A stretch of 64,000 nt of DNA from a virus (IMGVR_UViG_3300035396_000446:35006-99005); one strand, 5' to 3'. Numbered from the stretch's first letter, positions 28,793 to 63,150 are shown. Notes: generated by a model from the sequence alone, not told the origin. Numbers and translations are program-made.

Positions 28793-30013
28793 TTATAGAA
28801 ACCTACCCATAAACTGATTTTTCGCTTCATCCAAGTTGCTTACTGATGTCAATAGATTGACATCAACAGAGGCACTCTTGTCCACGAACGTAGATCCTTT
28901 CGGGTCGGTTTTGGCCAACTCGGCCATACCTTGGTTTAGAATATTAATAGAGGCGTTATAGTCTCTATCTATTTCTAAACCACATTTTTCACATTTAAAA
29001 GTCCTATCTTTCAAAGTTAGATCAACTTTTTTCCAACCACAACTAGAGCATGTCTTACTGGAAGGGAAGAACCTATCTACTTGATGAATAGTTCTACCAT
29101 ACCAACCTGACTTATATTTTAATTTTGTAACAAAAGAAGACCAAGACACATCATGGATTGCTTTGGCTAGTTTGTGATTTCTCACTATTCCTTTTATATG
29201 TAAATCCTCCAAACAGATAACTTGGCTCTCGTTAGCTATTTTAGAAGATAATTCATTTAAAAAATGGTTTCTCTGATTTGATACATGAAGATGGACTTTT
29301 GCTAACTTTACTCTTTGTTTTTCATAACGATTACTTCCTTTTACTTTTCTACTTAGCCTTCTTTGTAGAGTCTTTGTTTTATTTTCTGAATTTCTTCCAA
29401 AATGGGGATTCTCTATAATAGTTTTATCAGACATTACAGCAAACTCTTTTAGGCCTAGATCTATCCCAATGGATTTTGACTGGACCGGTAAGGTAGGAAT
29501 TTCTACATCACATAAGATTGATGCGAAATAATGACCTACCTTATTTTTGGATATAGTCACGTTACATATTTTTATAGTTTGTAGTATATCAAGGTATGAC
29601 CCCGATGCCTTAAATGAAACAAACCCAAGTTTTAATAATTTTATCTTAGTCTCAAGTACTTTACAGAAAGTTTCTGTCTGTGGTTCTCTATATGAATCTT
29701 TCATCCCCTTCTTCTTAAACTTAGGGAACCCTGATCCCATCTTTTTCATATTTTTGAAAGCTTCTGTTAAATCATTTTGAGCTTGTTGTAGTCCCCTAGA
29801 AGACCCTAAGGCCAACCATTCCAACTCTTTCTTAAAATCTTTTGGATTTAATTGTTTAAAGCCCTCATAACTACCATGCTCTTTTTTCCAAGAAATAACA
29901 TGTTCAAGACATTTATTATACCAAAAACGACAGTTTCCTATTGTCTGATTAATTTGTTGTTCCTGTTTTTTGTTAGGATACAATCTGACTTTAAATGCCT
30001 TCTTTCGTATCAT
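28793..30013 (-). CDS. tnpB: TnpB (OrfB) RuvC-like RNA-guided nuclease, IS200/IS605 family
   Basis: 406 aa. N-terminal KVRLYPNKKQ...CRFWYNKCLE; RuvC-I IGIDLGLKEFAV; RuvC-II VICLEDLHIKG; zinc finger CSSCGW...CEKCG; RuvC-III DRDYNASINI. All catalytic residues present. Confidence 0.8.
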   Translation of the reverse strand: MIRKKAFKVRLYPNKKQEQQINQTIGNCRFWYNKCLEHVISWKKEHGSYEGFKQLNPKDFKKELEWLALGSSRGLQQAQNDLTEAFKNMKKMGSGFPKFKKKGMKDSYREPQTETFCKVLETKIKLLKLGFVSFKASGSYLDILQTIKICNVTISKNKVGHYFASILCDVEIPTLPVQSKSIGIDLGLKEFAVMSDKTIIENPHFGRNSENKTKTLQRRLSRKVKGSNRYEKQRVKLAKVHLHVSNQRNHFLNELSSKIANESQVICLEDLHIKGIVRNHKLAKAIHDVSWSSFVTKLKYKSGWYGRTIHQVDRFFPSSKTCSSCGWKKVDLTLKDRTFKCEKCGLEIDRDYNASINILNQGMAELAKTDPKGSTFVDKSASVDVNLLTSVSNLDEAKNQFMGRFL

Positions 30014-30438: not shown

Positions 30439-32049
30439 TTAATACTCTATATCATCAAAAAGTAATGGGATACTTTCTTGAAACTCTTTTAGTAAAGGTC
30501 TCATTAACTCATGCATAATTGGATGTGCTACATCAGCAGTTCGTAAATCCATAATGTGTCGCCACTCTCTAATATTTGTGGTAACAACGATATCTGCTTT
30601 AATTCCAATAGGAAGTACATCCCTTGCAACTTGTGCTTTTACACCCATTCCAATAAGTTTCATGTAATTATTTTGAGAAGATTCCCAAGAGGATAAGAAT
30701 ATATCCTTGGCTTCTTGTCCAAGATTTTCAATATAGTCTGGAATGATTACTGAAATTTCGTTTCCGAACTTTTCTTTTGAATAATTCACGTATCTTGTAC
30801 TGTTATGGGTGATAAATCCTTCAGCAACATAATTGTTTAAAGGAGAGTTCATCTCCAAATCATAAAAAAACTCTTCTACTCCAATCTTTTCTATACTCGT
30901 TATTCTAGATAGTTTGGTATAAGAACATTTTTTCATCTCTTTATGGATCAACTTATGGCATTTGACACATAAAGGTAAAAGATTATACTCCTCATTATTT
31001 TTGGTATCTTTATCCGAGTGATGTCTCTCCTTTGCAGTGGACCCACAATTTAAGCATACAACCTCCTTTAATGAGAAGTTTCTATTAGCTCTACTATACC
31101 CATTCTTTACAGAGTTGCCTAGCCACGCACTATTTTCTTCACCTTTCCCGTTGTTGTGATGGTGGTTTCTTAATGTCTCGGCCTGTTTAGCTACAGATTT
31201 ATTTTCTGACTCTTTTACCCCACGATTCCATACTACCCTCCCATTCTTATATTGATTGTCTATTGTTTCTTTCATTTTTTTATAAGAATCTTCAGTATGA
31301 TTTATGTTGTATTTTCCTGGGTTTTTATCATTTTTCCTAGGAGTAAAAACATTTAATTTTTTAAGGATACGTATAATGCTTCTATATGGAATTTTATGCT
31401 TTTCACTTATTTCCAGAGGGCTCAAGTCTTTGTACTCTTCCACTAGTGAATCCTCGTCTATATTTAAGAGAGATGGTCTTCCGTTGACATTAATATACTC
31501 GCCAACTTTAAGATTTTTTACTGAATCATACTCGTTACTGTTCCTTAATAATTTGTGCTCGCAAGAACAGTCTAAGGAGTACCCTTCTTCCGTGTTAGCC
31601 CTGTATACATCTCCACCTTTCTTTTTGAATACGTGCATAATCTTATTGGCGACTATTAACTGATCATTTGTTACACTTTTTGCTAAGGGAAGGCTTTCCC
31701 CCTTTTCTTGCAGCTCATGTAGTTCTTCAATTGTTATCTTTGTCCCATCTGACATACTTATTTTTGTATTACCTGTGACACATTCCTGGGCAAAAGAAGC
31801 TAAACGCATTCTAACAATTTCATGGCTGAATCCCCGGTTTCCGTGGAATAGAACAGATATTACAGGAGCATGTTCAATCATCGCTTCATGTTTATTTTTA
31901 AGTAAAGTAGCAATCATTTTAAGATCGCTACCCTCTTGAATCAGATCTTCTGATTTATAACAAACCCTAGCAATTCTCTCAATCTGTTTTGTGAACTCTG
32001 TATTCCTGATGTCAGTTAAAATTTCATATGTTGGTTTTATTAATCTCAT
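30439..32049 (-). CDS. thyX: flavin-dependent thymidylate synthase ThyX interrupted by an intein
   Basis: N-extein (aa 1-89) has ARVCYKS and HxxIxxxRxRLASFAQE. The sequence is then broken by C (CVTGNTKI) and resumes after ...ITHN with STRYVNY, restoring the ThyX R(H/M)RxxSxxxxSxRY motif. Exteins total about 209 aa. Confidence 0.8.
   Translation of the reverse strand: MRLIKPTYEILTDIRNTEFTKQIERIARVCYKSEDLIQEGSDLKMIATLLKNKHEAMIEHAPVISVLFHGNRGFSHEIVRMRLASFAQECVTGNTKISMSDGTKITIEELHELQEKGESLPLAKSVTNDQLIVANKIMHVFKKKGGDVYRANTEEGYSLDCSCEHKLLRNSNEYDSVKNLKVGEYINVNGRPSLLNIDEDSLVEEYKDLSPLEISEKHKIPYRSIIRILKKLNVFTPRKNDKNPGKYNINHTEDSYKKMKETIDNQYKNGRVVWNRGVKESENKSVAKQAETLRNHHHNNGKGEENSAWLGNSVKNGYSRANRNFSLKEVVCLNCGSTAKERHHSDKDTKNNEEYNLLPLCVKCHKLIHKEMKKCSYTKLSRITSIEKIGVEEFFYDLEMNSPLNNYVAEGFITHNSTRYVNYSKEKFGNEISVIIPDYIENLGQEAKDIFLSSWESSQNNYMKLIGMGVKAQVARDVLPIGIKADIVVTTNIREWRHIMDLRTADVAHPIMHELMRPLLKEFQESIPLLFDDIEY
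30802..31782 (-). other. intein (327 aa) with embedded HNH homing-endonuclease domain, inserted in the ThyX RHR/SxRY active-site motif
   Basis: Cys+1 at 31782-31780; terminal His-Asn (30807-30802) followed by Ser+1 (30801-30799, checked against the nucleotides). HNH module: CLNCGSTAKERHHSDKDTKNNEEYNLLPLCVKCHKLIH. Confidence 0.75.
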
Positions 32050-49900: not shown

Positions 49901-50098
49901 TTATTTTTCCTCTATTTCTTCTTCGACGCTATAGTCTACGTCTACTCTCTTATCTGCGCCAGAGTACATATGTGTACCATCTATTAATTTCTGAAATATA
50001 TCTCGCATTTCAATTAGCGCCTCTTTACTCCAATTTCTATAGTTCCAACCACAAGTACATGGGTCATCCCAACACTGTATGCAACTTCTTAATGACAT
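49901..50098 (-). CDS. hypothetical small protein
   Basis: 65 aa with a CIQCWDDPCTCGW Cys cluster. Confidence 0.3.
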   Translation of the reverse strand: MSLRSCIQCWDDPCTCGWNYRNWSKEALIEMRDIFQKLIDGTHMYSGADKRVDVDYSVEEEIEEK

Positions 50099-50646
50099 TT
50101 TTGTCTCCTTATTTCTCTTATCTTATCACGAACCTGCTGAAAAGTCAAGGGTCTTAGTCCATGAAGTTCGCAGTTGACATTGAAGTATCTTTCACCCAAT
50201 TGTTGTATTTTAGTTTGGTCATTTCCAGGATGGAGGTGACCATGTAAATTTATTGCGTCTTTCCATCTCCCCTCTAATTGCATCGGATGAATAGGTACAT
50301 GTGTTAAAACAAACTCGGAGTTCTCTTCATAGCCGCCCCTAACAAAAATAGAGACAACTTTATCGAAATATTGGAATAGCTTTTTATTCATATCATGGTT
50401 CCCCATTATAAGAACTTTCTTTCCATTAAGTCTTGGAAGTATTCTATCTATGGATGTTTCAGGTTTGAAACATACGTCCCCAAAGTGATAAACAGTATCG
50501 TCCCAGGAGACATCTTCATTCCAATTCTTGATAAGGGTCTCATCATGTTCTTCTATTGAACTAAACCCTCTTGCTTCGTAAATGAATTTTTTGTTATGAC
50601 AAAAATGCGTATCAGATATAGCAAATGATTTTTGATTCTTTCCCAT
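50089..50646 (-). CDS. calcineurin-like metallophosphoesterase (second copy; Ser/Thr or polynucleotide phosphatase-like)
   Basis: 185 aa with ISDTHF (DxH), HFGDV (GD), IMGNHD (GNHD), VLTHVP and LHGHLH motifs. Confidence 0.65.
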   Translation of the reverse strand: MGKNQKSFAISDTHFCHNKKFIYEARGFSSIEEHDETLIKNWNEDVSWDDTVYHFGDVCFKPETSIDRILPRLNGKKVLIMGNHDMNKKLFQYFDKVVSIFVRGGYEENSEFVLTHVPIHPMQLEGRWKDAINLHGHLHPGNDQTKIQQLGERYFNVNCELHGLRPLTFQQVRDKIREIRRQKCH

Positions 50647-53900: not shown

Positions 53901-54160
53901 TTTATTTTTCCTCTTTTTTTAGGTTCAACATGTTCTCTGGTGTCTAGAATATTTTTTATAGCTTGGTATTTAGACTTATATCGTTCATTCCAATCTTTTT
54001 TGCGTTTACAATCCTCGCATTCACAATCCCACACATAATCCTCCAACCCAGTTAAAAAAGGAGTTCGGAAGTACTTTTTCTTATAAGTTAAAAGCCTTTT
54101 AGTTGATAAAGCTTTTAAAGCTTTAATAGAGAGTTCAATATCAGGAAAGCTCAATCTCAT
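53897..54160 (-). CDS. hypothetical protein
   Basis: 87 aa with CECEDCKRKKDW. Confidence 0.35.
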   Translation of the reverse strand: MRLSFPDIELSIKALKALSTKRLLTYKKKYFRTPFLTGLEDYVWDCECEDCKRKKDWNERYKSKYQAIKNILDTREHVEPKKRGKIK

Positions 54161-54573
54161 TTTAAAATTTCTCCTTCAATATCTTCAAATCTTGCTTTCA
54201 TTTTCTCGATAGATTCTGCTGGCACATCATGAATAGAACCATAATCACTTGTCATTCTAAAAATTGTTACTTGATAACCTAACTTTTCAGCAAGTTCTAG
54301 ATAAGACTCCATTTCCCATTTCTGGGTAAAAGTATTAGACACTATAACACCTTTACTTTGTTTCATCATTTCCATTGCAGTCTTTTTGCACCACTCATGG
54401 GCATTTTTAATCCTAGAGCCATCAAAGTCATAATGTCCATCTACATCTTCAAAGTACATATCAGCTTCTAGATGGACATAACCCTCCATTTCCAATTGGT
54501 ACGTCAAATTTGCTTTAACAAACGTGGATTTTCCAGAGCCAGGCGTTCCGCGCACGAGAATGAGATGTTTCAT
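54157..54573 (-). CDS. P-loop kinase, T4 polynucleotide-kinase (Pnk) kinase-domain-like
   Basis: 138 aa. ILVRGTPGSGKSTFVKANL matches T4 Pnk ILTIGCPGSGKSTWAREFI. KGVIVSNTF...LAEKLGYQVTIF...VPAESIEKMKARF tracks Pnk GVIISDTN...AKEYGWKVEHKVF...VPIDVLRSMYKSM. Confidence 0.5.
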   Translation of the reverse strand: MKHLILVRGTPGSGKSTFVKANLTYQLEMEGYVHLEADMYFEDVDGHYDFDGSRIKNAHEWCKKTAMEMMKQSKGVIVSNTFTQKWEMESYLELAEKLGYQVTIFRMTSDYGSIHDVPAESIEKMKARFEDIEGEILK

Positions 54574-56065: not shown

Positions 56066-56094
56066 ATTTTACCATGATATATGATTTTTGTCAA
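56066..56094 (-). promoter_or_regulatory. sigma70-type promoter TTGACA-N17-TAAAAT (TGg extended -10)
   Basis: Minus strand: TTGACA (plus 56089-56094), 17-nt spacer ending CATGG, TAAAAT (plus 56066-56071). Overlaps the 3' end of the nucleotidyltransferase gene and marks the end of the five-gene operon. Confidence 0.5.
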
Positions 56095-57026
56095 CCTTCT
56101 TTTATGTATTTTTCAGTTAAATCTATAAGATATTTATTTATTTTATCAAAATCAGATCTTTCTGGAAGCGTAGAGTTTTGCTCAACTTCTTGGAATTTCT
56201 TAAATAAGACATCGCAGATTTCCATTACTTCTTCAAAAGTATATATCCCTGTTTTAGTATTAAGAATAACTTTTCTATGTTCTTCAATCATAGGCAATTG
56301 AATAGTTTTCGTTTCTGCTAGTTCTAGTCCCTGATACAGTAGGCGAAGTAGATGCCCGGCGAACTTGCACTCAAATCCATACTTCCGAATATTATCTGCC
56401 CTAGATCCATAAGCATCTATTTCTTTTTTAAGATGGTCTCTTACTTGCTGCATTGGTTGTTTCACCATATAGGCTCTATTCTCACCTACTTTATTTTTAA
56501 ATGCGCCGTAGTGTAAGCCAGATAAAACTTGAACATCATATTCAGTCAAAGTATCATTTGAAATAGATGTGACATAATCATAGGAATTCTTTAAAGCATT
56601 AAATCTTTCTGTTTTTGTTTTAAGTAACTTTCTTTGCTCATTGCTATAACCAAAGTATGATTTAAACAAATTCTTAGTTATAAACATATCCTTCATACTT
56701 TGAATTTCAAAGTATAGGTCGGAGGTAAACAGCCTTTTCGACTCAGGAACAAAGAATAGTTCAAGAATATTTGGATTTGCTTTCATCGCTAATTCAAAAA
56801 ATCTATGGATAGAATACATAGTTGAGTCAATATCCTCTTTGCTATTTGCTGAGTAATTATCCCCTGTAGATGCTTGATATTCATCTCCCCTTGTAAGACC
56901 AAATAGCTCATTTTTAGATTTCATGAATAAACCGCAGTAATCCGTATCGGACGAAGGGGTATCGGTCCCATAGAGTTTAGAGCCTGAGTAACATATCATT
57001 ATTTTATTTGGTATGTTTTCAAACAT
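56091..57026 (-). CDS. polymerase-beta-superfamily nucleotidyltransferase with cGAS/OAS/CD-NTase (SMODS)-like active-site signature
   Basis: 311 aa. N-terminal ICYSGSKLYGTDTPSSDTDYCGLFM matches GS-x3-GT-x4-SDxD-hydrophobic, as in OAS1 [22 protein letters not shown] and cGAS-like enzymes. A further acidic EDID lies about 40 aa downstream. Helical C-terminal domain. Confidence 0.55.
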   Translation of the reverse strand: MFENIPNKIMICYSGSKLYGTDTPSSDTDYCGLFMKSKNELFGLTRGDEYQASTGDNYSANSKEDIDSTMYSIHRFFELAMKANPNILELFFVPESKRLFTSDLYFEIQSMKDMFITKNLFKSYFGYSNEQRKLLKTKTERFNALKNSYDYVTSISNDTLTEYDVQVLSGLHYGAFKNKVGENRAYMVKQPMQQVRDHLKKEIDAYGSRADNIRKYGFECKFAGHLLRLLYQGLELAETKTIQLPMIEEHRKVILNTKTGIYTFEEVMEICDVLFKKFQEVEQNSTLPERSDFDKINKYLIDLTEKYIKEG

Positions 57027-57036
57027 TATTATATCC

Positions 57037-58668
57037 TTAGCTGCTAATTTTGTATATAGTTTTATCTTTTATTCCCAATACCTGGTCTTCCCTATTGACT
57101 AACTTATATTCAGATAAGCCAGAATTAGGTATAACTTTTACATCATTTTGAGACACTGACTGAGCAAAAATTTCTGCGGAGTCATCCCCATTGACTTTAA
57201 ATACCACGCCCTTTGGTAAGCAAACAAAGTTTATACCACTATAGGATATATCCTTATTTATTCTAACAATTGGGTCTGTATATTCTTTTGAGAACTTAAA
57301 GATATATTCGTCGTACTTGCCTTGATAACTACTAATTATCACAAGTACAGTTTTATCGAACTTAGCATCTACTATTTGACCTTTAATATCTTTTAAAGGT
57401 AACTGCATATGCGTTTTCTTATTAGGAAAAAAAGATAATACAGGAGTTCCTAGTAGATTTTGAATAGCACATCCTGTATAAAATGTGGTTGCATTAGGTA
57501 GTACAGATGCTACAGGGTATAAAACAGGATAGGTTGCTGTTAGGTCAGTAATTTCTACTATTTGCTCCCCTATAAGTACATATACTCTTCCCTCGTAATT
57601 CAGGATGTTCTTTACTGCGCCACTATAAGTCCCTTTGATAGTTTTTAATTTATTGATATAATGTAGCTCTCTATTTTTTAATTCAACATAGAAAAACTCT
57701 TTGCCATTATCTAATATTGAAACTATCCCCTCTAAATCTATAGAATCTACATAGGTTTTAGAGGAAGTATAGACAATCTCCACTGCTCCAATTTTCTTGT
57801 AATTAACAATATCCGAGTCTTTACTAATATATTGATCAATCTTAAAAACACAAACGGTATCAATATGTTTTTGAATAACCACTACCGATCCCACTTGGTC
57901 TATCATGTTTGGGTCTAATCTCTTACCTTGCTCGAAGATAGCATGGAACCAACCTTTATAGTTCTGAGGAATCATATTGAGATCCGCCACAGGGGGCACT
58001 GAAACTTCTGCATTTAATACCGACAAGTTTTTTAGCATCCTGTCATTGATATCTTTTACTGTTGGGTGCTTCCCCTTATAAGGATGTATGCCAGTTAACA
58101 TCTGAAATGCTAATACAGCATAGGAAAACCAATCTGTTTCTTTTGAAAACTGTTTGGCATGTCTATCTCTAATACTATCCATAATAGCCGTAGCAGGGTA
58201 CGTCTTGGTTTGATAAGAATCTACATCAATTGCATATAATTTCTTAAAAGACGAATCTAATAGAAAATTGAGTTCATTCATGTCTACTATAAGGATGTTA
58301 TTAGAGTGACAATTATTCATTATAACCTGTAACTGCTTCATAAGATTTACAATAGTGTCTGCTTTTATTTGATTTCTCACTTTAAAAGCTTTTGTAAATA
58401 TTTGACACAAAGCAGTAGTATCTGTCACATAATTCATAGTATACCCAACTGCTTTCGTACCCTCATAAATGATGTCTTCTGGTTTAATAATACTTGGCTC
58501 TTTTAATACCGCCAACTCTTTAATCTTATCGGTAGGAATCATTTTATTGGGGTCTATATATAGTTTATAGGCTACCCCATCTTTTGCATAGATATGACCT
58601 TCCCCGCCGGAAGCGACAAAGTTATTTTTTGTTAAATCAATGTGTCTGTTTTTAACTGTTACTTGCAT
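57037..58668 (-). CDS. eukaryotic-like Ser/Thr protein kinase with about 290-aa C-terminal extension
   Basis: 543 aa. Gly-loop ASGGEGHIY; VAYKLY (beta3 Lys); catalytic loop HSNNILIVDMNELNFLL (like HRDLKPENILL); AIDVDS in the DFG position; FSYAVLAFQMLTGIHPY in the APE/alpha-F region. Confidence 0.7.
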   Translation of the reverse strand: MQVTVKNRHIDLTKNNFVASGGEGHIYAKDGVAYKLYIDPNKMIPTDKIKELAVLKEPSIIKPEDIIYEGTKAVGYTMNYVTDTTALCQIFTKAFKVRNQIKADTIVNLMKQLQVIMNNCHSNNILIVDMNELNFLLDSSFKKLYAIDVDSYQTKTYPATAIMDSIRDRHAKQFSKETDWFSYAVLAFQMLTGIHPYKGKHPTVKDINDRMLKNLSVLNAEVSVPPVADLNMIPQNYKGWFHAIFEQGKRLDPNMIDQVGSVVVIQKHIDTVCVFKIDQYISKDSDIVNYKKIGAVEIVYTSSKTYVDSIDLEGIVSILDNGKEFFYVELKNRELHYINKLKTIKGTYSGAVKNILNYEGRVYVLIGEQIVEITDLTATYPVLYPVASVLPNATTFYTGCAIQNLLGTPVLSFFPNKKTHMQLPLKDIKGQIVDAKFDKTVLVIISSYQGKYDEYIFKFSKEYTDPIVRINKDISYSGINFVCLPKGVVFKVNGDDSAEIFAQSVSQNDVKVIPNSGLSEYKLVNREDQVLGIKDKTIYKISS

Positions 58669-59512
58669 TTGTTATTTCCTTTGGAAATATGATAGAGGAT
58701 ATTGATATATCATCGTAATGTGTAATGTTATTTTTCTTACATTCTTTCAAGAACTTATTCATCGTTCTCTGAGTAACCCCAGATGTGAGTAGTTTAAAAT
58801 CATTCATCTTTTTCACAATAGTAATTGGGTCGATAGGATTATTCTCTGCATCTAAGAAAGAAAAAACTCCGTCAGACATTACAGATACATATTCTACAGA
58901 CCCCTTGGTAACATTATGACTGAAATGACACTCTAGAACGTCACGCTTGATATTTGAAATTTCAAGCCCACCAGCTTGCGTTAATATACTATGTAAAGTG
59001 TAGGAACTCTTATTTAAAATATCTACCTTTGCTTTACGGTTTAAATCATATGAGTATATTGGATAATACGGGTACCCCGATTCATAAGAGAGCAAAAATA
59101 GTTGGGAGTCTCCGTCAATGTATTTTATATAAACGGCACCATCTCCTATAGCTTTAATACATATTTCTCTACCTAGCTCCAAAGCATACAAAAGAGTAGC
59201 ATCTATAGGAGTTGTTCCATCTGTATTTTTAATCCCGAAATCTCGTTCTACTATATCTAATGCAGTTTTTACAGTTTGGACAATACTTAGGTCGCCTCGG
59301 TCAATCGTAAGATTATTTTTTAAAACATTTGCCAACACCATGGAACCTATATGGGTGTTCCCTGACCCCGAGCATCCGTCTGATATAATCGCTATACCAT
59401 TTCCTGACGTAGCATGGTCTTCACAAAAGACGTGGGTATTTCCTTTGGCAAAATAAAAATCTGTAAACATGGTGAACCACCTATTGAATTTTTTTGTAGC
59501 TAAGGTACACAC
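58652..59512 (-). CDS. PP2C-family (PPM) Ser/Thr phosphatase
   Basis: 286 aa with FCEDHATSGNGIAIISDGCSGSG (ED...DG.G motifs I/II), VMSDGVF and C-terminal YDDISISSIIF (DDIT motif). Confidence 0.65.
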   Translation of the reverse strand: MCTLATKKFNRWFTMFTDFYFAKGNTHVFCEDHATSGNGIAIISDGCSGSGNTHIGSMVLANVLKNNLTIDRGDLSIVQTVKTALDIVERDFGIKNTDGTTPIDATLLYALELGREICIKAIGDGAVYIKYIDGDSQLFLLSYESGYPYYPIYSYDLNRKAKVDILNKSSYTLHSILTQAGGLEISNIKRDVLECHFSHNVTKGSVEYVSVMSDGVFSFLDAENNPIDPITIVKKMNDFKLLTSGVTQRTMNKFLKECKKNNITHYDDISISSIIFPKEITNASNS

Positions 59513-59536
59513 CTGGATAGGTGCATACCTTAATTG

Positions 59537-60289
59537 TTAAATGCTTAGACTAATTGGCTTTGAAGCTCCGCCTGATCCAAGCGATTGGCTTTGAGCACTG
59601 ATTGACTTACTAACAAACTGAGCGAGTTTTGCAAGTGTATTCGCATTTGCATTATCGATCTTTTCGTATTGAGAAAACTCTGCTTCTGTTTTGAAGTCAG
59701 TAAGAAACTTATCAACATCTACGTCAGAGGTATTCACCCCGATTAGAATTGTTAGAATAGATTCCAAACTGGTCTCTTCTTTTTGAACTTGTTTAATGAG
59801 TTTTGCAACTTCTTTAGATGTATTTGTTGATTGATTATCATCACCATCTGTGATAACAAATACAATACCATTTACATCGAAATCTTGTGCTGTAAGCTCT
59901 GCGCCATATTGTCTTGTTGCCTCGATACCATTGATTGTTGCATCAAACAACGCAGTCATACCGTAAGGTTTAACAGCATCTTGGTAATCTGACAAATTAC
60001 ACTCGGAGAGCAGTTTGAACCCGTGCTGTTCTGTAACATCTGCATTGAATGAAACGAGTCGGATCATAAGATTATCGGCTCTTGGGGATTTTTGACAAGA
60101 TTTAACAACTTCTTGAATCGCTTTTACAAGGTCATCTCGGAATGAACTTACGGAACCAGATACGTCTACTACTAGAGTAACTAAAGTGTATTCCGAACTA
60201 CCAAGATTTACTAATTTTGTTTTACTGAATTGAAAGCCCCCTGTTTTAACTGCGGGGGTAACTTCCATTGTGTCTGTATTGAATCTCAT
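59537..60289 (-). CDS. von Willebrand factor A (vWA) domain protein, TerY-like
   Basis: 250 aa with MIDAS LVVDVSGSVSS, a downstream T (GMTALFDA) and VFVITDGDDN. Confidence 0.65.
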   Translation of the reverse strand: MRFNTDTMEVTPAVKTGGFQFSKTKLVNLGSSEYTLVTLVVDVSGSVSSFRDDLVKAIQEVVKSCQKSPRADNLMIRLVSFNADVTEQHGFKLLSECNLSDYQDAVKPYGMTALFDATINGIEATRQYGAELTAQDFDVNGIVFVITDGDDNQSTNTSKEVAKLIKQVQKEETSLESILTILIGVNTSDVDVDKFLTDFKTEAEFSQYEKIDNANANTLAKLAQFVSKSISAQSQSLGSGGASKPISLSI

Positions 60290-60304
60290 GTTAATGCTCC
60301 TGTA

Positions 60305-61105
60305 TTATTTAAGGAATTCGTTTGTTGTGGATAACTTCATACCGCGAGCAACCATGCTGTTGATGAAGTCATCTTGGTCTTTCTCGAAACCTGTTACAGG
60401 GCTAGTTGCGTCAGTAAGAAGGGTTACTTTACTTACATATTTGTCTCCGCCTAGAGCATCAACAATATCAATAAGAGTAAACTTCAAACAATGACTTCCT
60501 GCTTCCCCTGCGATAACAAGGTTGTCCACAGCCTCTAAACTTTCAGTAAGGGTAGTATTAAGCTGTGTGCTTAGGTCCGCTGGATCGGGAACTTCTGCTT
60601 TAACTGCTGAATAATGTTCTGTAAGGAAATTGCTCCCTTTTGTAACATAGTCAACATTTGCCACATATTTATCGCCCCAGGTAAGAAGAGATGTATATAG
60701 GTCTGATACAATTTGTGTTCCCCAACTTCCAATAAGGCAATGAGCTGGCCATACACATAATAGATAACGTCCGTTATCTTTAAGAGCCTTAGTGTAAGAT
60801 AGCGCATATTTAGAGAAAGAAGGTATCGTTGGCATCCATGTCCCATTTGCAACATCATCATAAGAGATGATTGTAAACGGATTCGGTTTTTGTCCAGAGG
60901 AATTTTTCCAAAACCCTGGGTGGGCGATGTCAAGTAAGTGATGGCTGTCTAAAGTAACGTGAATGTCCGTTAGTTTAGCACCAACTCGGTCAATCATTTT
61001 TGCAAGTCGAGACATATCTTTGTCTGCACCTGCAACAAAAAGCGCACCTTTAGAGTCACAGAAGTCATTCTGTGGGTCGATGATAAGTAATTGTGTGTTT
61101 TGCAT
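60305..61105 (-). CDS. pncA: nicotinamidase (PncA-like, isochorismatase superfamily)
   Basis: 266 aa. LLIIDPQNDFCDSKGALFVAGAD matches M. tuberculosis PncA IIVDVQNDFCEGGSLAVTGGA. TLDSHHLLDIAH is the D/H metal site. WPAHCLIGSWGTQI matches WPPHCVSGTPGADF. LVIAGEAGSHCL is the catalytic Cys region. Confidence 0.7.
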   Translation of the reverse strand: MQNTQLLIIDPQNDFCDSKGALFVAGADKDMSRLAKMIDRVGAKLTDIHVTLDSHHLLDIAHPGFWKNSSGQKPNPFTIISYDDVANGTWMPTIPSFSKYALSYTKALKDNGRYLLCVWPAHCLIGSWGTQIVSDLYTSLLTWGDKYVANVDYVTKGSNFLTEHYSAVKAEVPDPADLSTQLNTTLTESLEAVDNLVIAGEAGSHCLKFTLIDIVDALGGDKYVSKVTLLTDATSPVTGFEKDQDDFINSMVARGMKLSTTNEFLK

Positions 61106-61138
61106 ATATTATCCTGTTAGTTTTTTTTTAGGAAGCTT

Positions 61139-61167
61139 ATTATACCATGATTGTATAAAAAAAGCAA
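61139..61167 (-). promoter_or_regulatory. sigma70-type promoter TTGCTT-N17-TATAAT (TGg extended -10) for the pncA-vWA-PP2C-kinase-NTase operon
   Basis: Minus strand: TTGCTT (plus 61162-61167), 17-nt spacer ending CATGG, TATAAT (plus 61139-61144). Leader ends ACAGGATAATAT-ATG of pncA. Confidence 0.55.
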
Positions 61168-61698: not shown

Positions 61699-62098
61699 CT
61701 AAATCTCCTGATTTTAATGCGGAAACTTCAGTGCAAGACATACAGTTACCGTCTTTGTCTTTTCTTAGTGGTTGCTCACACTTTGAACACTCTTGGTATG
61801 GGATAACCTCCTTAAAATAAAGGTTATCTTCCCATTCCCCGAAATAATCTTGAGTGTGGTCATACCTTACCTCAACCAAATAGACACCGACAGCTAATTT
61901 GTAATAAAAACCCATCCCATCCATATCCTCTTGTAGCTCATCAAACACATAATCATTATGACATTTATCTATATTGAGTATCTGAAGTAAATGAGCTTCT
62001 AGATTACAGTCTATAGCAATAAGACAAAATGGGTGCTCGGTCCCAGGAATATAATCCTCTTCTTGTTCCCTTACTTCCATTTGCATTAGCTTTAGCAT
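61688..62098 (-). CDS. hypothetical protein, C-terminal Cys cluster
   Basis: 136 aa ending CSKCEQPL...CMSC. Confidence 0.4.
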   Translation of the reverse strand: MLKLMQMEVREQEEDYIPGTEHPFCLIAIDCNLEAHLLQILNIDKCHNDYVFDELQEDMDGMGFYYKLAVGVYLVEVRYDHTQDYFGEWEDNLYFKEVIPYQECSKCEQPLRKDKDGNCMSCTEVSALKSGDLDGN

Positions 62099-63150
62099 TC
62101 TTCTTGTCCATTATCTGTATCAACTACACCTGCTTCCTTATCAAGATATTCATGAAACCATCTTCTAGCTTCTTTAGAGATATGCCCGTTGACGCTTTTA
62201 GGCTCAAGATTATTCTTAATAAGCGTATCCATTTCTTCTTTCATAACATCATTTACAACCCATCTCAAGAAGTCGCCTGTTTTCTCCACTACAGGAGGTT
62301 CATTTGCAAATACAATAGAAATACCCTGCATAAGTCTATTCTCTGTTACAGCATATTCAACAAACTCTTTTATACCTTCCATTTTCTCTACATCAACAGC
62401 GGATAAAGTCGTAACACGGGAACTACTATGCTTCTCTCCCTTCGTTTTGAAAATTATACGGTTATCACCTAAATATGTCTCCCATACAATTCCTTCTCCA
62501 ACACCCTCTACCCCAAAAGCTTTTCCAACGGGGCATTGAGTTTCTACTTCTTCTACATACTCAATCATTTTCTTTTGAGCAATATGTGGGTTCTCAAAGT
62601 CGATGTCTATTTCATATGTTTTAAAAGAAAGAATATTGTAGATGTTATGCTCTTTAAGGTCATTAAAATAAGACGCATCAAACTCTTTAAGCCACTTCCC
62701 TTCCGTCTCGTTCTCTACAACATTTGATAATTTTACACCAAATACTACAAACATCTTATTAGGAAGTTGGGAAAGGGCTACTCCTTTTTGAATGCTTTGA
62801 CCACACCATTCACCATAGATAGAGATAATATCTGCGTCTGTTTTTATAGTAGAAAACATATGTTTAAATACTTCTTTCTTGCTCTCTACAAAGAAAGCAA
62901 AACCGGCGTTATCTTTTTCAATAGTAATAATATTTTCTCTTGACTGCGCCCACATGTCGCCTGTTTTTGTATTAAAACACACCCCTGAATTCGTACCATG
63001 GAGTTTGACTGTTCCTCTAAACTTAATAATAGGCAACTTTATAGTTCTATCATACCCTTTCTCTTTATCTACGAATTGAACCCTATCAGATACGGCTCGA
63101 ATTGTTTGTCTAAATTGTTGTGTCTCTGGGTAACTAATTAATTTTTTCAT
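62092..63150 (-). CDS. RNA ligase, Rnl2 family (T4 gp24.1-like)
   Basis: 352 aa. Motif I TVKLHGTNSGVCF matches T4 Rnl2 REKIHGTNFSLI. IYGEWCGQSIQKGV matches FGEFAGPGIQKNV. EGIVWETY is motif IV-like. IIFKTKGEKH is motif V (K-x-K). Confidence 0.7.
   Translation of the reverse strand: MKKLISYPETQQFRQTIRAVSDRVQFVDKEKGYDRTIKLPIIKFRGTVKLHGTNSGVCFNTKTGDMWAQSRENIITIEKDNAGFAFFVESKKEVFKHMFSTIKTDADIISIYGEWCGQSIQKGVALSQLPNKMFVVFGVKLSNVVENETEGKWLKEFDASYFNDLKEHNIYNILSFKTYEIDIDFENPHIAQKKMIEYVEEVETQCPVGKAFGVEGVGEGIVWETYLGDNRIIFKTKGEKHSSSRVTTLSAVDVEKMEGIKEFVEYAVTENRLMQGISIVFANEPPVVEKTGDFLRWVVNDVMKEEMDTLIKNNLEPKSVNGHISKEARRWFHEYLDKEAGVVDTDNGQEEC

Follow-up and report, generated by a model that had tools for sequence, protein, structure and literature searches.

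Nicotinamidase-like genes linked to TerY-P-type phosphorylation triads in large phages and bacteria: a candidate switch on NAD+ salvage

Triads of the TerY-phosphorylation (TerY-P) type combine a vWA protein and a PP2C phosphatase with a kinase that carries a fused zinc ribbon, and are hypothesized to act as a metal-sensing phosphorylation switch (Anantharaman et al. 2012); a variant with an OB fold is a validated stand-alone defence system (Gao 2020; both as summarised in PMC11090510). In E. coli K-12, the corresponding genes are yegL (vWA), pphC (PP2C) and yegI (kinase); YegI is active and has a membrane-spanning tail and a substrate that is not known (bioRxiv 10.1101/819920). Jumbo phages encoding Preiss-Handler genes have been published as 'NAD-jumbo phages' (PMC11662467), and the NAD+ reconstitution pathways NARP1, NARP2 and NARP3 use Adps/Namat, Nampt/Nmnat and PnuC/NadR, respectively (PMC11662467; bioRxiv 10.1101/2024.02.11.579819; PMC13464706). 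The present work concerns a 64,000-nucleotide stretch of viral DNA (IMGVR_UViG_3300035396_000446:35006-99005), called the window throughout, with positions counted from its first letter. Its region 56066-61167 encodes a PncA-like nicotinamidase, a vWA protein, a PP2C-type phosphatase and a Hanks-type Ser/Thr kinase, followed by an RlaP nucleotidyltransferase. The first four genes form a cassette that recurs in phages and bacteria. Its best reading, held at slightly better than even confidence, is that NAD+ salvage via the Preiss-Handler route would be gated by a Ser/Thr phosphorylation switch. What appears to be new is the nicotinamidase linkage of a triad of the TerY-P/YegLKI type; the triad class and phage Preiss-Handler genes were already known.

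Linkage of the four genes and their NAD+ salvage neighbourhood

Eighty-five loci were collected with the kinase as seed, comprising 80 from IMG/VR, 3 from GenBank huge phages (462-595 kb) and 2 from metagenome contigs, one of which is the window's own. An IMG/VR scan with the single kinase sequence found no relatives; an alignment-based scan found them. Kinases at least 90% identical were collapsed, which leaves 72 groups. The open reading frames (ORFs) of each locus were searched with iterated hidden Markov models (HMMs), and neighbouring ORFs were clustered, the clusters being confirmed by Pfam and extended by HMMs; the neighbourhood is everything within 10 kb.

The kinase is accompanied by PP2C in 71/72 loci, by vWA in 65/72 and by the PncA-like gene in 65/72. 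All four genes occur together in 63/72, and in nearly all loci they are co-directional in the order PncA-vWA-PP2C-kinase. Seeded from PncA instead, 79 loci contain vWA in 74 cases, PP2C in 71 and the kinase in 71 within 10 kb; in most of the exceptions the locus extends beyond the sequence that was fetched. The linkage is reciprocal and strong from either seed, in phages and in bacteria. The nicotinamidase that the original prediction placed upstream of the triad is thus truly linked to it. The five-gene co-occurrence proposed there stands for these four genes but not for the fifth, RlaP, which lies near the kinase in just 6/72 non-redundant phage loci, at varying positions. The unit therefore comprises four genes, not five.

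The junctions within the cassette differ in tightness. PncA-vWA is the tightest (median gap 50 nt among phages, 24 nt among bacteria), and the two genes shift as a pair when the order is permuted; in three phage loci (L028, L044, L064) the pair is found across the kinase from its usual place. Between vWA and PP2C the spacing is loosest, with a phage median gap of 346 nt and 35% of gaps longer than 1 kb.

The genes that recur around and within the cassette are those of NAD+ synthesis. PncB (NAPRTase) is found in 28/72 related loci, NadE (NAD synthase) in 24/72, Nudix in 23/72 and a NadD-like adenylyltransferase in 15/72, and at least one of PncB, NadE and NadD lies within 10 kb in 37/72. They also stand between the cassette genes themselves (PncB in 11 cases, NadE in 9, NadD in 7), and in one locus (L020) the layout is PncA-vWA-PncB-NadE-PP2C-NadD-kinase. 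Together, PncA, PncB, NadD and NadE supply every step of the Preiss-Handler route by which nicotinamide becomes NAD+. The next recurrent family inside the cassette, and the sole one outside NAD metabolism, is a 369-residue family of no known function in 4 loci (one at L054 7600-8709). The conserved cassette reproduces, in compact form, an NAD+ salvage neighbourhood that is widespread. The presence of PncB, NadD and NadE beside or inside it strengthens the idea of a function against NAD depletion, and in the phage a role against NADase defences is plausible from this gene content.

Two further loci are recorded here as observations. In a 191-kb relative whose kinase is 43% identical (L005 6093-9998), the vWA gene and PP2C are separated by a gene for a Band_7/SPFH protein, and PP2C and the kinase by one for a 722-residue protein whose match to vWA is faint; genes for HNH, ThiF, ARPP-1, NAPRTase and NAD synthase follow downstream. 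These inserts indicate that the cassette tolerates large insertions. In a 6.5-kb human faecal 'Bacteriophage sp.' record (MT837596.1, 1362-2648), PncA-like and vWA genes adjoin (31.6% and 26.8% identity), so the pair is present in gut viromes too.

The bacterial copies come from a scan of one genome per prokaryotic species, which returned 211 kinase relatives. Among the best 80 of these 211 loci, PncA occurs in 52, vWA in 54 and PP2C in 50, in the same order and with the GC content of the host; Nudix is often upstream (27) and PncB is nearby, often downstream (16). The hosts include Armatimonadota (among them complete 4-6-Mb Capsulimonadaceae chromosomes), Acidobacteriota (Blastocatellia, Pyrinomonadaceae), Myxococcota, Desulfobacterales and Thiotrichales. 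In two complete Capsulimonadaceae chromosomes the genes next to the cassette encode an M56 peptidase, an ECF sigma factor, polyphosphate kinase and a GGDEF protein. These are ordinary cellular genes, and the idea that the bacterial copies are prophages was rejected for these chromosomes. The cassette is not specific to phages, which makes a dedicated host-takeover device, as initially proposed, less likely. In a Capsulimonadaceae chromosome (L087 3675-6677, minus strand), the gene immediately upstream of the cassette encodes a 1000-residue protein with WGR and ATP-dependent DNA-ligase domains; elsewhere, WGR is known from PARP-type enzymes, which consume NAD.

In cultured Variovorax strains the cassette is split into two blocks on a replicon of about 800 kb, which in Variovorax sp. 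SRS16 is plasmid 2, an 801-kb 'non-mobilizable plasmid' (NZ_LR594667.1, 610-648 kb; L245, L247). In the first block, PncA (annotated as 'cysteine hydrolase') and vWA stand beside two NUDIX genes, a macro-domain gene and an NAD kinase; the second, about 20 kb away, reads PP2C-kinase-pncB. The surroundings on this replicon comprise many hypothetical genes, RNase HII, AlkB, RecX, an S49 peptidase and peptidyl-tRNA hydrolase, a content that looks phage-like or megaplasmid-like.

The separation in Variovorax, the variable vWA-PP2C junction, a stable hairpin between the two halves in the window and the three loci in which the PncA-vWA pair lies across the kinase would all fit an arrangement of two independent, co-travelling units. 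One of these, PncA-vWA, would serve NAD or ADP-ribose metabolism, the other, PP2C-kinase, would phosphorylate proteins of the host or the phage in the service of general takeover or regulation, and no direct biochemical coupling would join them. We regard this as unlikely: whichever seed is used, about 90% of loci keep the halves no more than 10 kb apart, in phages as well as in at least five bacterial phyla of very different GC, and even the detached PP2C-kinase half of Variovorax adjoins pncB. Moreover, vWA, PP2C and kinase, which this division would pull apart, constitute a recognised triad in the order of E. coli yegL-pphC-yegI.

The four proteins and their relation to described systems

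The PncA-like protein matches PF00857 (isochorismatase) in Pfam at 31.9 bits (cut-off 27). A profile search of PDB with its family returns mostly nicotinamidases, the top match being yeast Pnc1 (2h0r, E 8.6e-15). In the alignment with Pnc1, residues D10/K156/C206 fall on the catalytic triad, D8/K122/C167 in Pnc1, and D53/H55/H122 fall on the zinc ligands (motifs DwH and WPvHC). All six residues are invariant in 34 homologues. An Asp/His/His metal site of this kind separates nicotinamidases from other isochorismatase-like hydrolases. Thus the phage protein and Pnc1 have in common the Asp-Lys-Cys triad and the metal site; they differ in a conserved insertion of about 46 residues in the phage protein, in its sub-cut-off equivalog score and in its pairing with a vWA protein. 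By its residues it looks catalytically competent.

The vWA protein reaches Pfam VWA_2 only at E 0.009, under the cut-off, and its profile has no match among PDB sequences. Its metal ion-dependent adhesion site (MIDAS), D42-x-S44-x-S46...T112...D148, is invariant in the family. An AlphaFold2 model built from an alignment of database homologues (predicted local distance difference test score 90, predicted template modelling score 0.90) is matched by Foldseek to the vWA domains of integrin I and anthrax-receptor (ANTXR) proteins. The invariant MIDAS and this structural match confirm the assignment despite the Pfam score. More than 1000 homologues exist, and the JGI label they carry is 'YegL'. At the C-terminus, helix 216-239 bears the motif LAKLAxFVS[KR]SIS[AS]QSQ[AS]LG, with S227, S229, S231 and S234, and its conservation equals that of the MIDAS in phages and bacteria alike.

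The phosphatase matches PF13672 (PP2C_2) at 27.1 bits (cut-off 24), and its metal-binding residues D18, D31-G, G-D110-G, D200-G and D253-D254 are invariant. The kinase matches PF00069 (Pkinase) at 38.3 bits (cut-off 31.7), with G21-G22, K35, D129...N134 and D148 invariant. More than 700 full-length kinase homologues are found in public data, about 40% identical and about 560 residues long, many on contigs of 100-550 kb. The C-terminal part of the kinase is a predicted soluble beta-propeller, and Pfam places no TerY-C domain on the protein. The 632 representative homologues of the propeller lie nearly all at the C-terminus of proteins of about 560 residues, and no other domain architecture bearing it occurs among them; it is therefore specific to this kinase family. 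By their sequences, all four cassette proteins retain intact catalytic residues. The four domain calls of the original prediction consequently hold, that of PncA in the form of a nicotinamidase-like cysteine hydrolase.

Profile-sequence comparison with hhalign relates the triad to that of E. coli. Over the whole kinase domain, the kinase profile aligns with YegI at 96.9% (E 1.5e-10), and the unusual motifs GGEG, DxNxxNF, IDxDS[FY]Q and HPY coincide; the PP2C profile aligns with PphC at 78% (E 1.8e-5), and the vWA profile with YegL weakly, at 13% (E 0.002). The three catalytic domains, a vWA domain with MIDAS, a PP2C phosphatase and a Hanks-type kinase, stand in the same order as in E. coli and in TerY-P arrays. 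On these two grounds, domains and order, the triad is classed as TerY-P/YegL-PphC-YegI type, as had been suggested from the sequence alone. The cassette departs from its relatives in the kinase tail, a soluble propeller in place of the zinc ribbon (TerY-C), the OB fold or the membrane-spanning tail of YegI. It also departs from them in being tied to a nicotinamidase and often to PncB, NadD and NadE, a link that is not reported for TerY-P; at the E. coli locus no NAD genes adjoin yegL-pphC-yegI.

With the NAD-jumbo phages and the NARP pathways the cassette shares its setting, namely large phages with NAD+ salvage genes, including Preiss-Handler enzymes, that are proposed or have been shown to preserve NAD+ and counteract NADase immunity. 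In contrast to the NAD-jumbo phages, the window encodes the PncA step alone. NARP1-3 use other enzymes, and the papers on them mention no kinase, phosphatase or vWA protein. The Pfam scan found no NARP families inside the cassette; no search aimed at them was made across the window. Literature searches turned up no account of a phage system that joins a nicotinamidase to a kinase, nor of the cassette itself, in agreement with the original statement that no phage system of this composition is known. Kinase, phosphatase and vWA are not mentioned in the Preiss-Handler jumbo-phage paper (PMC11662467), nor in the NARP3 abstract. A jumbo-phage survey (PMC7824862) lists no protein kinase or PP2C, PP2C is likewise missing from a viral NAD-ADPr survey, and the cassette genes go unmentioned in the huge-phage paper (Al-Shayeb et al. 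2020).

The kinship with TerY-P raises the question of whether the cassette is itself a TerY-P-type defence or superinfection-exclusion system. In such a system, the triad would sense infection and the PncA-like hydrolase would be an effector or accessory, for example by destroying nicotinamide so that a competitor phage could not rebuild NAD+ by the nicotinamide-requiring NARP1 or NARP2. Exclusion systems are known in large phages, and the cassette is horizontally mobile among phages and distant phyla. The PADLOC results can be read on either side: the kinase weakly matches PD-T4-6 defence kinases, as well as mad6, but PncA, vWA and PP2C have no match. This negative says little about kinship with TerY-P, because YegL and PphC of the E. 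coli triad are unmatched too. TerY-P-like modules do act as stand-alone defence (Gao 2020, via PMC11090510), but the cassette kinase has neither the OB fold nor the zinc-ribbon tail of the described TerY-P kinases. The interleaved PncB, NadD and NadE fit the rebuilding of NAD+ and not its denial, and the bacterial copies lie amid housekeeping-type genes, not in obvious defence islands. A defensive function is accordingly thought quite improbable.

Layout of the locus and its RNA-repair surroundings

The window is part of a metagenome contig of 190,870 bp (ENA ERZ27248460 k141_226049), has a GC content of about 33% and carries nearly all its genes on a single strand. Portal, TerL, helicase, thymidylate synthase and RNA ligase genes identify it as phage DNA, which bears out the phage origin assumed at the outset. 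Its terminase shares only 25-33% identity with the terminases of distant T4-like myoviruses. Megablast and blastn searches of the 5.2-kb cassette region against 50,697 phage records gave no match, and there is hence no close cultured relative among them. Elsewhere in the window, a 406-residue ORF (28793-30013, minus strand) matches PHROG transposase families (phrog_506, E 1e-121) and resembles IS200/IS605 TnpB; it would be a mobile element within the phage genome. In a 536-residue ORF (30439-32049, minus strand), a thymidylate synthase match is confined to residues 417-534 and an HNH endonuclease match to residues 326-373, so it may be a thyA gene interrupted by a homing endonuclease or intein-type element, or a fusion.

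Table 1 Features of the cassette region and its context in the window.
Feature	Position	Strand	Remarks
PncA-like nicotinamidase (cysteine hydrolase)	60305-61105	-	266 aa, PF00857
vWA protein with complete MIDAS motif and conserved Ser-rich C-terminal helix	59537-60289	-	250 aa
RNA hairpin in the vWA-PP2C spacer	59500-59533	-	15-bp stem, without U-tract
PP2C-type Ser/Thr phosphatase	58652-59470	-	272 aa from ATG 59470; alternative GTG start 59512 gives 286 aa
Kinase, whole ORF	57037-58668	-	543 aa
Hanks-type Ser/Thr kinase domain	57898-58668	-	residues 1-257 of the 543-aa protein
Kinase C-terminal beta-propeller domain (predicted)	57037-57843	-	residues 276-543 and stop codon
RlaP nucleotidyltransferase	56091-57026	-	311 aa, PF10127
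Promoter-like site upstream of the cassette	61139-61167	-	TTGCTT-17-TGgTATAAT, extended -10
Promoter-like site downstream of RlaP	56066-56094	-	TTGACA-17-TGgTAAAAT
RNA ligase (context, RNA-repair set)	62092-63150	-	phrog_548, E 2e-56; PF09414 in the contig gene table
AAA_33/Zeta_toxin-type P-loop kinase (context)	54157-54573	-	PF13671, E 2e-16

The five ORFs of the region are co-directional and closely packed (Table 1), with gaps of 15, 24 and 10 nt and an overlap of 17 nt when PP2C is counted from GTG 59512, exactly as first described. The start of PP2C is most likely ATG 59470, since a GGTGG Shine-Dalgarno sequence lies 7 nt upstream and both the N-terminus of the family and the ENA gene call concur; the spacer between vWA and PP2C is then 66 nt. 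This spacer contains the hairpin, at the junction that is most variable among related loci (minimum free energy -22.2 kcal/mol, z -4.45 against shuffles). With no U-tract after its stem it is not a canonical terminator, and it may serve in processing, stability or attenuation.

The array had also been described as lying between two consensus sigma70 promoters, a claim that stands in part. The downstream site agrees with the consensus at 11/12 positions and has the TG extension. The upstream site has a perfect TGnTATAAT, but its -35 hexamer agrees at just 3/6 positions, which is why a generic scan omitted it, and matches of the generic sigma-70 type are no more numerous in the region than expected by chance (41 against 35 +/- 6). 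A motif shared by the two sites, the extended -10 element TCATGGTAWAAT, is enriched: at up to one mismatch it has 9 matches in the window against 1.7 expected, all on the coding strand (11256, 20329, 33545, 36770, 36818, 42728, 44700, 56066 and 61139, minus strand), several of them intergenic, and both sites match it exactly. TCATGGTAWAAT is probably the promoter motif of this phage for the host RNA polymerase. The coding strand between the two sites contains no terminator-like site, and co-transcription of the five genes is plausible from this layout.

The fifth gene encodes a protein that matches PF10127 (RlaP) at 81.2 bits (cut-off 23) and phrog_388 'nucleotidyltransferase' (E 1e-67). RlaP is the RNA-ligase-associated Pol-beta nucleotidyltransferase family, whose distribution in jumbo phages mirrors that of RNA ligases (PMC7824862). 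A cGAS/OAS/SMODS-like enzyme had been proposed here and is ruled out by this assignment, together with the poor conservation of the gene in related loci; the Pfam scan gave no SMODS or CD-NTase family at E <= 0.1, and PADLOC none either. The fifth gene being an RNA-repair enzyme, the 'nucleotide-signal synthesis' arm of the proposed module is dropped.

RNA-repair genes occur on both sides of the NAD cassette in this contig. Besides the ligase of Table 1, Thg1 and an Rnl1-like ligase lie just past the window end (L004 2133-4779), and a metallophosphoesterase at 50089-50646 is counted among these surroundings. The AAA_33 P-loop kinase is a possible polynucleotide kinase of the same set. The locus resembles the described RlaP systems in its score, well above the PF10127 cut-off, and in the nearness of RNA ligases and Thg1; its sole departure is that the NAD cassette stands between RlaP and the ligases. 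In the 72 related loci an RNA ligase is near the kinase in only 2, and Thg1 (9/72), NADAR (7/72) and RlaP (6/72) also recur near the cassette. This recurrence and the flanking RNA-repair genes seen here indicate that NAD and RNA-repair genes tend to share a neighbourhood. RlaP is probably co-transcribed with the cassette as an RNA-repair neighbour outside the conserved unit.

The original five-gene takeover operon, in which a phosphorylation switch would be coupled to cGAS/OAS/SMODS-like signal synthesis against CBASS or Thoeris, draws on genes that are co-directional, tightly spaced and enclosed, without an intervening terminator, by two matching promoter-like motifs, and on the Pol-beta-type GS...DxD motif of RlaP, but it is contradicted by the identity of RlaP, its scarcity in related loci and its flanking Thg1, two RNA ligases and P-loop kinase, which fit the published role of the family (PMC7824862), and is considered very improbable.

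A proposed phosphorylation-gated entry into NAD+ recycling

The favoured reading, NAD+ salvage under a phosphorylation switch, can be set out as follows. The nicotinamidase would convert nicotinamide, which is freed whenever NAD+ is consumed, including by NADase defence effectors of the host, into nicotinate. Nicotinate would enter the Preiss-Handler route through PncB, then NadD, then NadE. About half of the related phages have genes for these enzymes beside or inside the cassette; the present phage, judged from its 64 kb, would rely on those of the host. The vWA/PP2C/kinase triad would act as a reversible switch of the YegL-PphC-YegI (TerY-P) type that gates the nicotinamidase step. For a phage, the outcome would be to help maintain NAD+ supply while infection proceeds, also in the face of NADase effectors that release nicotinamide. 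The vWA protein, encoded nearly always directly after PncA, is likely to be both the enzyme's partner and the target of phosphorylation, through its Ser-rich helix and its MIDAS, and the propeller of the kinase is a probable sensing or docking domain. RlaP would be a mere co-transcribed neighbour from the RNA-repair set. The analysis shows the folds and domains of the proteins, the intactness of the catalytic residues in all four and the linkage of the genes; the substrate, the pairing of kinase and target, the direction of regulation and the benefit against defence are what we infer.

Several points weigh against this reading. Its support is computational throughout. The PncA-like protein scores 56.6 bits with the NCBIfam PncA equivalog NF008623 and does not reach the cut-off of 174, a score so low that it marks a divergent subfamily; together with the insertion of about 46 residues, it makes another amide substrate possible. 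An HMM scan of the window with models from the related loci found no PncB, NadD, NadE or Nudix. The cassette is split in Variovorax, and three low-GC loci attributed to metagenome-assembled genomes (L113, L138, L148) are probably mis-binned phage contigs. Linkage also leaves the triad free to act on host proteins or other NAD enzymes, as it could. Finally, removal of nicotinamide relieves the product inhibition of Sir2-type NADases, which would harm a phage facing such defences.

A more specific form of the salvage reading is offered tentatively, as a possibility that falls short of even likelihood. The nicotinamidase and the vWA protein would form a phospho-regulated complex, and the propeller kinase and PP2C would toggle the entry into NAD+ recycling upon a signal of NAD+ breakdown or infection. 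Such a complex would give the YegL-PphC-YegI/TerY-P-type triad its first physiological context. In large phages it would constitute a fourth, regulated and Preiss-Handler-based route of NAD+ reconstitution against NADase immunity.

TerY-P/YegLKI-type triads are common in bacteria, and their sensed signal and phospho-targets are still undefined; one variant is the validated anti-phage system described above, and another belongs to CoCoNuT loci. The subfamily described here, with hundreds of kinases and more than 1000 vWA proteins, is consistently tied to a nicotinamidase and the Preiss-Handler route, which provides a concrete target for the switch. Cultured Variovorax strains with the cassette genes offer a tractable experimental system. 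If the salvage reading is true, it would be, to our knowledge, the first sign of phage NAD+ salvage under Ser/Thr phosphorylation control. The depletion and reconstitution of NAD+ are a central current theme in the conflict between phages and bacteria, and large phages with a regulated route based on PncA would add to the NARP repertoire known so far.

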